Positions 22,483-48,280 of a DNA stretch of 64,000 bases are shown here, piece by piece. Origin of the DNA: Escherichia coli (lineage in GTDB: Bacteria; Pseudomonadota; Gammaproteobacteria; Enterobacterales; Enterobacteriaceae); NCBI RefSeq assembly GCF_001677475.2, contig NZ_CP015229.1; one strand, written 5' to 3'. The position numbers were made by a program, and so were the translations under genes. The notes under the pieces are model-generated. The model was not told the origin of the DNA and did not search any database. It was given only the letters and a program-made list of their open reading frames with translations. Positions within the stretch are counted from its first letter, which is position 1; each line of letters opens with the position of its first letter.

Positions 22483-22741
22483 TCATTTGCCGCCTGCTGC
22501 AATGAGGCGTTTACGCCGCATATCAGCTTAAAAAATGAACCATCGCCAACGGCGGTGGTTTTTTTGTGATCAATTTCAAAATAAAAACAATAATCCGATA
22601 AAAATAAAACAGTGTTTCAATTGATGTGGTTTTGATCACTTTTATTGATTAAATGAATGTCTATCTTCGTTTCCATCAACACTGATGCTCCATTGAGGAA
22701 TTACGCATCAGCCCTTAAAAATATGCCGACAGGTGATGGAA

Positions 22742-24551: not shown

Positions 24552-24648
24552 CCCGGAGTGTAGGCCTGATAAGACGCTATCAGCGTCGCATCAGGCATCC
24601 TGCTCAAATGCCGGATGCGGCGTAAACGCCTTATCCTGCCTACAAATG
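24552..24648. repeat. Pair of REP elements (BIME-like)
   Basis: gtaggcctgataagacgctatcagcgtcgcatcaggc and gccggatgcggcgtaaacgccttatcctgcctac. Confidence 0.7.
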
Positions 24649-26028: not shown

Positions 26029-26723
26029 GAAGCAGAAACCATCAGATAGCCGCGACCACGCAAGGTTTTAAACCACGGGTGACCATCTTTACGATCCGGC
26101 AGTTTACGACGCAGGTTGGAAATGTGCATATCGATAGCGCGGTCGAAAGGCGTCAGGCGTTTGCCCAGCACTTCCTGGCTTAAATGTTCACGGGAAACCA
26201 CCTGACCCAGATGCTGTGCCAGCAAATAGAGCAGGGTAAACTCAGTGCCGGTTAACTCCAGCGTTTGCCCGTCGAAGCTGGCTTCCTGACGGCCTGGATT
26301 CAGCACTAAGGCATCAACCTCAAGTGTCGGTGAACCGTTGTCGTTGTTTTGCTGTTGCTCGCTCCAGTGCGAACGGCGCAGGATCGCGCGAATACGTGCC
26401 ACCAGCTCACGATCATTAAACGGTTTCGGGAGATAGTCATCTGCGCCCAGCTCAAGGCCGAGAACGCGATCAAGTTCACTGCCGCGCGCCGTCAACATAA
26501 TGACAGGCGTCTGGTGTGTCTGGCGAAGTGCTTTTAATGTGTCGATACCATTTTTCTTTGGCATCATTACATCAAGCAAAAGTAAATCAATGCTGTCGTC
26601 CAGAAGATCAAGCGCCTGTTCCCCATCGTGGGCAACAATCACGTTGAAGCCTTCCATCTCGAGCAGCTCCTTTAATAGGGAAGTCAGCTCTCGGTCATCA
26701 TCAACTAACAGGATTTTATTCAT
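26025..26723 (-). CDS. cpxR: Response regulator CpxR
   Basis: 232 aa OmpR-family ORF, overlaps cpxA start. Confidence 0.95.
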   Translation of the reverse strand: MNKILLVDDDRELTSLLKELLEMEGFNVIVAHDGEQALDLLDDSIDLLLLDVMMPKKNGIDTLKALRQTHQTPVIMLTARGSELDRVLGLELGADDYLPKPFNDRELVARIRAILRRSHWSEQQQNNDNGSPTLEVDALVLNPGRQEASFDGQTLELTGTEFTLLYLLAQHLGQVVSREHLSQEVLGKRLTPFDRAIDMHISNLRRKLPDRKDGHPWFKTLRGRGYLMVSAS

Positions 26724-26777
26724 TGTTTAAATACCTCCGAGGCAGAAATTACGTCATCAGACGTCGCTAATCCATGA

Positions 26778-26793
26778 CTTTACGTTGTTTTAC
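26778..26793 (-). promoter_or_regulatory. CpxR box (GTAAA-N5-GTAAA) in cpxR/cpxP divergent promoter region
   Basis: Minus-strand reading GTAAAACAACGTAAAG. Confidence 0.6.
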
Positions 26794-26872
26794 ACCCCCT
26801 GACGCATGTTTGCAGCCTGAATCGTAAACTCTCTATCGTTGAATCGCGACAGAAAGATTTTGGGAGCAAATG

Positions 26873-27373
26873 ATGCGCATAGTTACCGCTGCCGTCATGG
26901 CCTCAACGCTGGCAGTCAGTTCATTAAGCCACGCTGCTGAAGTCGGTTCAGGCGATAACTGGCATCCGGGTGAAGAACTTACGCAGCGCAGTACGCAGAG
27001 CCATATGTTCGACGGCATAAGTTTAACCGAACATCAGCGTCAGCAGATGCGAGATCTTATGCAACAGGCCCGGCACGAACAGCCTCCTGTTAATGTTAGC
27101 GAACTGGAGACAATGCATCGCCTTGTCACCGCAGAAAATTTTGATGAAAACGCTGTGCGCGCACAGGCAGAAAAAATGGCGAATGAGCAAATTGCTCGTC
27201 AGGTTGAGATGGCAAAAGTCCGCAACCAAATGTATCGCCTGTTAACGCCGGAGCAGCAAGCGGTTTTAAACGAGAAACATCAACAACGAATGGAGCAGTT
27301 GCGCGACGTGACGCAATGGCAAAAAAGTTCATTGTTGAAGCTATTGAGTAGTAGCAACTCACGTTCCCAGTAG
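26873..27373 (+). CDS. cpxP: Periplasmic Cpx pathway inhibitor/chaperone CpxP
   Basis: 166 aa from [21 protein letters not shown]... Confidence 0.9.
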
Positions 27374-27375
27374 TA

Positions 27376-27439
27376 AACCCTGTTTTCCTTGCCATAGACA
27401 CCATCCCTGTCTTCCCCCACATGATGTGGGGGTTTTTTT
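27376..27439 (+). ncRNA. cpxQ: cpxP 3'UTR-derived sRNA region (CpxQ) ending at the cpxP intrinsic terminator
   Basis: Position directly after cpxP stop; terminator hairpin cccccacatgatgtggggg + T8 at 27413-27439; exact 5' end not determinable from sequence. Confidence 0.5.
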
Positions 27440-27521
27440 TATCCTCAATTTGCCTGCTGCTTAATGCATTGCAGATGATTTGCTTCCGTTATACTAGCGT
27501 CAGTTGATAGCGGGAGTATTT

Positions 27522-28424
27522 ATGAATCAATCTTATGGACGGCTGGTCAGTCGGGCGGCGATTGCTGCGACGGCGATGGCTTCGCTGCTATTGCTGATTA
27601 AAATTTTTGCATGGTGGTATACCGGGTCGGTGAGTATTCTCGCCGCGCTGGTGGATTCGCTGGTGGATATCGGCGCGTCGTTGACGAATTTACTGGTGGT
27701 GCGATATTCCCTGCAACCTGCCGACGATAATCACTCGTTTGGTCACGGTAAAGCTGAGTCCCTCGCGGCGCTGGCGCAAAGTATGTTTATCTCCGGTTCA
27801 GCACTATTCCTGTTTTTGACGGGTATTCAACATCTGATATCTCCAACACCGATGACAGATCCAGGCGTCGGGGTTATCGTGACAATTGTGGCGCTAATTT
27901 GTACGATTATCCTTGTCTCGTTTCAGCGTTGGGTGGTGCGCCGGACGCAAAGCCAGGCGGTGCGGGCTGATATGCTACATTACCAGTCTGATGTTATGAT
28001 GAACGGCGCAATTCTGCTGGCGCTGGGGTTGTCCTGGTACGGCTGGCATCGCGCCGATGCTCTGTTTGCATTGGGAATCGGCATCTATATTTTATATAGC
28101 GCGTTACGCATGGGATATGAGGCGGTACAGTCATTACTGGATCGCGCATTGCCTGATGAGGAACGGCAAGAAATTATTGATATCGTGACTTCCTGGCCGG
28201 GTGTTAGCGGCGCTCACGATCTTCGCACGCGGCAGTCAGGGCCGACCCGCTTTATTCAGATTCATTTGGAAATGGAAGACTCTCTGCCTTTGGTTCAGGC
28301 ACATATGGTGGCGGATCAGGTAGAGCAGGCTATTTTACGGCGTTTTCCGGGATCGGATGTGATTATCCATCAGGACCCCTGTTCCGTCGTACCCAGGGAG
28401 GGTAAACGGTCTATGCTTTCATAA
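27522..28424 (+). CDS. fieF: Cation-diffusion facilitator (ferrous iron/zinc efflux) FieF
   Basis: 300 aa from [13 protein letters not shown]... Confidence 0.9.
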
Positions 28425-29624: not shown

Positions 29625-29725
29625 CCTGATGCGCTTCGCTTATCAGGCCTACATGAATTCTGCAATTTATTGAATTTGCGAACTTTTGTAGGCCGGATAA
29701 GGCGTTCGCGCCGCATCCGGCATGG
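29625..29725. repeat. REP element cluster downstream of pfkA
   Basis: gcctgatgcgcttcgcttatcaggcctac ... gtaggccggataaggcgttcgcgccgcatccggca. Confidence 0.7.
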
Positions 29726-42811: not shown

Positions 42812-43342
42812 TTACGCTTTGTAGCTTAATTCTTCGATGGTGTGGAAATGGTTGGTATAGATGCAAATGTCGCCTGCAATATCCAACGCCTTTTCAGCAA
42901 TTTCACGGGCGCTAAGTTCAGTGTTTTCTAACAGCGCGCGCGCCGCAGCCTGGGCGTAAGGGCCGCCGGAGCCGATAGCAATAAGATCGTTTTCTGGCTG
43001 CACCACGTCACCGTTACCGGTGATGATAAGCGATGCAGTTTCATCCGCGACTGCCAGCAGTGCTTCAAGTTTGCGCAACATGCGATCGGTACGCCAGTCT
43101 TTTGCCAGCTCAACGGCGGCTTTGACCAGATGGCCCTGATGCATTTCCAGTTTGCGTTCAAACAGTTCGAACAGCGTAAAAGCATCCGCAGTACCGCCCG
43201 CAAAGCCCGCGATGACTTTGTCGTTGTACAGACGGCGGACCTTTTTCACGTTGCCTTTCATTACGGTATTGCCCAACGTGGCCTGACCATCACCAGCGAT
43301 GACCACATGGCCGTTACGGCGTACGCTTACTATAGTTGTCAC
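42812..43342 (-). CDS. hslV: ATP-dependent protease peptidase subunit HslV
   Basis: 176 aa [23 protein letters not shown]... Confidence 0.95.
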
Positions 43343-43434
43343 GAGCTGACCCCTTGGTTACGAATACAGAGTACAAACCCCGTACAAAAGTACGGGGCAT
43401 AATGCAATTATAGATGGGGGGGATTTTGAGGGTT

Positions 43435-45666: not shown

Positions 45667-48024
<2,358 letters not shown>

Positions 48025-48028
48025 TTAG

Positions 48029-48280
<252 letters not shown>

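Follow-up and report, generated by a model that had tools for sequence, protein, structure and literature searches.

The closest described system is CpxQ itself, the 3'UTR-derived small RNA (sRNA) that Chao and Vogel reportedly described in 2016 in E. coli K-12 and Salmonella. Two seed regions of CpxQ and an in-vitro reconstitution with RNase E and Hfq are reported as well. On Northern blots of E. coli, CpxQ is seen as a 58-nt RNA that is made either from the processing site or from longer cpxP-derived transcripts, and its seed for nhaB and cfa is the 5' end; in E. coli K-12, the mutation C11G in CpxQ ends the repression of cfa and the compensatory mutation G135C restores it partly (PMC6755755). 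CpxQ naturally carries a 5' monophosphate, has a half-life of more than 16 min, and represses E. coli nhaB via a site in the coding sequence, where U7 is part of a G:U pair (PMC10250213). The cleavage by RNase E near the stop codon of cpxP and the dual role of Hfq have been reviewed, and the targets given in the reviews are nhaB, skp, agp, ydjN, fimA and cfa (PMC9438474; PMC5736990), with the repression of skp in E. coli going back to Grabowicz et al. 2016 (PMC4817254).

CpxQ has company among the Hfq-dependent sRNAs. In SdhX, SroC, NarS, GlnZ and MicL-S, which are also derived from 3'UTRs, the terminator of the mRNA likewise provides the 3' end of the sRNA, RNase E cleavage close to the stop codon sets the 5' end, and the seed belongs to an unpaired stretch that is conserved; unlike CpxQ, they have their own parental genes, seeds and regulons. 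A second relevant RNA is Hrs1 of Erwinia amylovora (Rfam family RF02628; Zeng & Sundin 2014), which was described as a 74-nt, Hfq-dependent RNA with a Rho-independent terminator, conserved only within Erwinia and encoded between cpxP and fieF in the same orientation as both genes ('> > >') (PMC4070566). The third relevant class is formed by sRNA, tRNA and tmRNA genes whose 3' ends serve as phage attachment sites (attB), such as the P2-type site at cyaR (PMC3032704) and the site at ssrA: the attP core of the phage is a copy of the 3' portion of the RNA gene, so that integration restores a complete gene.

Here we describe the region downstream of cpxP in a window of the E. coli chromosome, the window being the whole stretch of 64,000 nucleotides that was analysed; all positions are given in its coordinates.

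Identity of the RNA encoded downstream of cpxP

Around the site, the minus strand carries cpxA and cpxR, and the plus strand carries cpxP, fieF and pfkA. The cpxP coding sequence, which gives the parental mRNA of CpxQ (RefSeq 'cell-envelope stress modulator CpxP'), extends over 26873..27373 (+) in the open reading frame list and in the mapped MG1655 annotation, and the same list places its TAG stop codon at 27371-27373. The 67 nt 3' of the stop codon (27374-27440) close with a GC-rich hairpin and T8. The first-pass annotation had noticed here a region of ~60 nt after the cpxP stop with a GC-rich hairpin and T8, which agrees with the 67 nt, the 8-bp hairpin and the T8 that we find. Two open reading frames on the minus strand (27126..27422 and 27280..27420) were set aside as mechanical, being antisense to cpxP and without annotation support.

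In MG1655 (NC_000913.3), the ncRNA gene cpxQ (b4716) is annotated at 4106330-4106387; it is 58 nt long and starts 10 nt past the final base of cpxP. In the alignment, b4716 maps base for base to 27383-27440 (+) of the window with one substitution, and the mature RNA as annotated in K-12 begins at 27383, 9 nt inside the interval of the first-pass annotation, which had begun at 27374. Over 181 nt around CpxQ, the window and K-12 differ in a single base, position 27424 (+), the middle base of the 3-nt terminator loop, which is A here and C in MG1655. The A at 27424 predominates in E. coli, in other genera of the Enterobacterales and in phage attP cores, and the C of K-12 is the minor allele. Most complete E. 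coli genomes, O157:H7 and REL606 among them, match a 101-nt query around CpxQ at 100% identity, and K-12 derivatives have the one mismatch.

The region had been proposed to be the CpxQ sRNA locus, and the match of 57/58 bases to the annotated cpxQ, in the 3'UTR of cpxP and on the same strand, bears this out. Alignment with CpxQ had been suggested as the check, with divergence of the seed region as the result that would speak against the proposal; the alignment to b4716 leaves a sole change, in the terminator loop, and the 5' seed is the same as in K-12. The RNA thus shares with CpxQ of E. coli K-12 and Salmonella the locus (cpxP 3'UTR, upstream of fieF), the 58-nt length, 57/58 bases, an identical 5' seed, terminator stem and U8 tail, and a predicted CpxR-controlled promoter region upstream; unlike K-12, it has A at the terminator-loop base. 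The CpxQ call stands above chance because of the position and the 57/58 identity to the annotated cpxQ; the terminator alone is not rare. We conclude that 27383-27440 is almost certainly the cpxQ gene, encoding the 3'UTR-derived sRNA CpxQ. The finding is already known and the identification is an ordinary one: the strain has a standard, intact cpxQ locus. A cpxQ feature is absent at this site in PGAP-annotated E. coli genomes.

Terminator and predicted structure of CpxQ

The terminator scan, the RNA fold and the covariation all place a Rho-independent terminator at 27414..27440 (+). Its hairpin, CCCCCACA-UGA-UGUGGGGG (27414-27432), has a stem of 8 bp, six of which are G-C, and a loop of 3 nt, and it is followed by T8 at 27433-27440 (U8 in the RNA). 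A terminator with its U-tail is the Hfq-binding 3' module typical of the class of sRNAs to which CpxQ belongs. The RNA folds with -17.4 kcal/mol (z = -2.35), and 5 of 200 shuffled sequences folded equally well. The minimum-free-energy fold further predicts a small stem-loop 1 of 5 bp (AGACA/UGUCU) at 27396..27412 (+); all five pairs are invariant, so that covariation speaks neither for nor against it.

The terminator stem, on the other hand, covaries. In an alignment of 115 sequences, 101 cells were altered on both sides of the stem, as against 29.8 +/- 4.2 in shuffled alignments, none of which reached this value (0/500), and at most 28 cells were changed on both sides in slid controls. The stem variants include CCCCCACA/UGUGGGGG, CCCCCUCA/UGAGGGGG, CCCCGCC/GGCGGGG and GCCCUCC/GGAGGGC, among others.

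Conservation of the CpxQ locus across Enterobacterales

A scan of one genome per species with the pattern CTGTTTNCCTTGCCA-N6-9-ATCCCTGTCT found the CpxQ core in at least 120 species genomes of Enterobacteriaceae, Erwiniaceae, Pectobacteriaceae and Yersiniaceae. Among the matches listed, 115 of 120 loci have a co-oriented cpxP homologue (46-98% amino-acid identity) immediately upstream, the upstream DNA of the other five being too short to judge cpxP; also among the matches listed, a co-oriented fieF comes next in 73 of the 84 loci with enough downstream DNA. The pattern missed more divergent orthologues, for example that of E. amylovora.

Because the pattern fixes 24 columns, invariance in those columns is circular. 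The pattern-free positions 27386 and 27395-27402 nevertheless show no variation except that a few Pantoea-group sequences lack one base, while the 12 nt upstream and all positions past the T-run diverge freely. The 5' seed, CpxQ nt 1-22 at 27383..27404 (+), which includes U7 (27389) and C11 (27393), is identical to that of K-12 and invariant in 115 sequences, the pattern-free positions included. In the pattern-collected loci, with 24 bases fixed by the search, conservation is higher in the 3'UTR than in the cpxP coding sequence: the identity of CpxP falls to 46-55% and the RNA core is invariant.

Promoter, processing site and target pairing

The divergent region between cpxR and cpxP contains a CpxR-P box, GTAAA-N5-GTAAA (GTAAAACAACGTAAA), at 26779..26793 (-), 77-91 nt upstream of the cpxP start. 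An exact-match scan found it as the sole match in the 64-kb window, with 0.11 expected by chance. The consensus of the box is established knowledge of the Cpx regulon, and this perfect upstream copy argues that transcription of cpxP and CpxQ would depend on CpxR. No sigma-70-like promoter turned up in a consensus scan of 26600-27700, consistent with the production of CpxQ by processing rather than by separate transcription.

The context of the processing site, CCCUG/UUUU, is at 27378..27386 (+): the 5' end of b4716 maps to U27383, and U is present at +2 and +3. The alignment shows the cleavage context to be the same as in K-12, and conservation across species sets in abruptly at ~27378. The consensus for RNase E, reportedly given by Chao et al. 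in 2017, has a purine at -2; the -2 base of the CpxQ cleavage context is U, not the consensus purine, which counts against cleavage by RNase E.

From the K-12 and Salmonella literature, we infer that CpxQ of the present strain would be cleaved, bound by Hfq and active in regulation as follows. Envelope stress would activate CpxR, which would bind the box upstream of cpxP and give one transcript that stops at the hairpin-U8 terminator (27414-27440). RNase E, aided by Hfq, would cleave this transcript between 27382 and 27383, just past the stop codon of cpxP, to give a 58-nt RNA that is stable and carries a 5' monophosphate. While Hfq occupies the terminator/U-tail module, the conserved single-stranded 5' end of CpxQ would pair with mRNAs such as those of nhaB, skp and cfa and repress these targets by translation block or by RNase E decay.

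The pairing of the seed with two published targets was compared with the K-12 data. In the K-12 cfa leader, GGCAAGG at -135 is the complement of CpxQ nt 5-11 (CCUUGCC), in line with the published C11/G135 pair; in the duplex scan of the cfa leader, 9 of 300 shuffles do equally well. In a local check of the nhaB coding sequence (CDS 280-340), CpxQ 6-13 pairs with CDS 307-314 with G:U pairs at U7 and U8, as published, and the extended pairing of nt 3-22 at CDS 295-315 reaches -17.0 kcal/mol. When CpxQ 1-22 was scanned against the full nhaB mRNA, the published site was not at the top and the result was not significant, with 56 of 300 shuffles equal; thus, complementarity alone would not have picked out nhaB.

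Beyond the seed, RNAduplex with CpxQ 1-40 paired the second conserved block of CpxQ (~nt 22-31, UCCCUGUCUU) with GGGGACAGGA in the long 5'UTR of MG1655 cfa. The GGGGACAGGA site is ~-185 to -175 from the cfa ATG, upstream of the validated GGCAAGG, and this pairing may be a matter of chance.

Relation of CpxQ to Hrs1

A search of the whole window with Rfam 15 at the gathering threshold did not find a CpxQ family. The model RF02628 (Hrs1) matches the minus strand at 27440..27368 with 44.5 bits (E = 1.4e-7), under its gathering score of 56.4. On loci of Erwinia and Pantoea, the same covariance model reaches 61-69 bits, above the gathering score, and does so on the strand opposite cpxP (L054 1373-1446, L056 3606-3679 and L014 360-430). 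Because hrs1 lies between cpxP and fieF in the same orientation and its RNA is Hfq-dependent with a terminator, Hrs1 is a positional orthologue of CpxQ. It has in common with CpxQ the position, the strand of cpxP and the conserved blocks CCUUGCCA and AUCCCUGUCU. The RF02628 model appears to be reverse-complemented, and Rfam misses CpxQ on the correct strand because the only related model is inverted and narrowly trained. The restriction of Hrs1 to Erwinia (PMC4070566) does not hold at the level of the locus.

Plus-strand matches to NsiR1, RyhB and OmrA-B in 27200-27560, obtained in the E-value search, are weak and driven by the terminator, and were rejected as chance. Elsewhere in the window, the matches above the gathering score are SECIS_3 at 9143-9201 (-), the REP-type element naRNA4 at 24563-24640 (-), just past cpxA, ES036 at 29645-29686 (-), the ClpQY (hslVU) promoter element at 43340-43397 (-) and the L31 (rpmE) leader at 48009-48061 (+), all of which are expected in this region of E. 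coli.

Overlap of CpxQ with a phage attachment site

The segment 27397..27443 is an empty attB core of 47 bp for Wphi-type P2-like phages, and it covers CpxQ nt 15-58 plus the 3 nt ATC. The core matches Wphi 22550-22596 in 47/47 bases; in the Wphi genome, this segment is situated between ogr and int, the usual place of attP in P2. A total of 62 phage records share 27397-27443 at 100%, including Wphi, L-413C, fiAA91-ss, FSLSP004 and several P2-like phages of Yersinia and Escherichia. The window itself carries no prophage here, since fieF directly follows. In E. coli EM22-18-53, a P2-like prophage sits between cpxP and fieF, flanked by two exact copies of the core, with CpxQ intact on the cpxP side. 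Of 5425 complete E. coli genomes, 793 (14.6%) contain the attL junction, and the cpxP-fieF segment is interrupted in 833 genomes, which agrees with the count of attL.

The core holds the 3' three-quarters of CpxQ, with the terminator, the U-tail and the larger part of stem-loop 1. As at other sRNA, tRNA and tmRNA genes used as attB, the attP core repeats the 3' portion of the gene, and the gene is made whole again upon integration. Since the core is shared with the phage, CpxQ in the ~15% of E. coli genomes that are lysogenic is a host-phage chimera, regenerated at attL. Lysogens have a second, promoterless copy of the Hfq module at attR before fieF, and the free phage has another downstream of ogr. 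The E. coli W genome paper gives 'cpxP-fieF' as the site of prophage Wphi1 (PMC3032704). Unlike the other attB sites in RNA genes, the CpxQ site is recorded in the searchable literature only under this name, and we found no text tying the cpxP-fieF phage site to CpxQ in the literature outside subscription papers.

Integrase genes or fragments are found past CpxQ in Trabulsiella odontotermitis, Pantoea ananatis, Erwinia sp. OLFS4 and Yersinia pestis. Those integrases (L048, L089, L096 and L111) have 55-76% amino-acid identity to the Wphi integrase and lie ~0.2-1.1 kb after CpxQ. Such Wphi-Int-related integrases after CpxQ in other genera indicate that the attachment site is used well beyond E. 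coli. A separate observation concerns NZ_JBQJRQ010000002.1, a circular record of 32,330 bp named 'plasmid unnamed3', which is a complete P2-like phage with tail genes, ogr, integrase, cox and an att core derived from CpxQ; rather than a plasmid, it probably represents a prophage that was excised or circularised.

Alternative explanations

A hairpin with a T-run right after a gene is the default arrangement of a transcription unit, and terminator-like sites in the 1.1 kb scanned are not above chance (2 seen against 1.0 +/- 0.9 expected), as if the region were only the terminator of cpxP with an untranslated tail and no trans-acting RNA. Such a bare terminator has no need for a conserved single-stranded leader, yet ~31 nt upstream of the terminator are invariant where CpxP is only ~50% identical, while the stem covaries. 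Published genetics also place the regulation at C11, with compensatory seed and target mutations for cfa in K-12 (PMC6755755), and we regard this explanation as very improbable. A functional RNA on the minus strand, as the Rfam model of Hrs1 suggests, would account for the match there and for the matches above the gathering score opposite cpxP in Erwinia and Pantoea. In the paper that defined hrs1, however, the gene is co-oriented with cpxP and fieF and ends in a Rho-independent terminator (PMC4070566). Read on the minus strand of the window, the hairpin comes after A8 and lacks a U-tail, and the terminator scan did not find a minus-strand terminator. An inverted Rfam seed explains the match best, the score in the window is under the gathering score, and a minus-strand RNA is extremely improbable.

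The extreme conservation could, in another explanation, be due to the use of the site by phages and not to the function of the RNA. The 47 bp of 27397-27443 are indeed identical to the Wphi-type attP core, and ~15% of E. coli genomes have a prophage in the site. Positions 27380-27396, however, are outside the att core and equally invariant, the terminator stem inside the core varies and covaries between genera, and a host has no reason to keep a site for a phage. Phages typically pick sites that are already conserved, such as the 3' ends of tRNA, tmRNA and sRNA genes. Conservation for the sake of the phage is extremely improbable, and CpxQ as a conserved plus-strand sRNA is the reading that we retain.

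Implications

CpxQ serves as the RNA component of the Cpx response to inner-membrane stress, in which it helps to protect that membrane, and is a textbook example of an sRNA derived from a 3'UTR. The overlap with attB might be the sole element of this locus worth a short follow-up. It is unlikely that the overlap has a functional consequence, either through RNA read through from ogr or through homogenisation of the terminator allele by phage traffic. If it had, read-through from ogr could give a CpxQ-like RNA without the first seed, which would titrate Hfq or use the second conserved block, or phage traffic could homogenise the terminator allele across strains and genera. For the engineering or deletion of cpxQ, the overlap with an often-used prophage attachment site matters.
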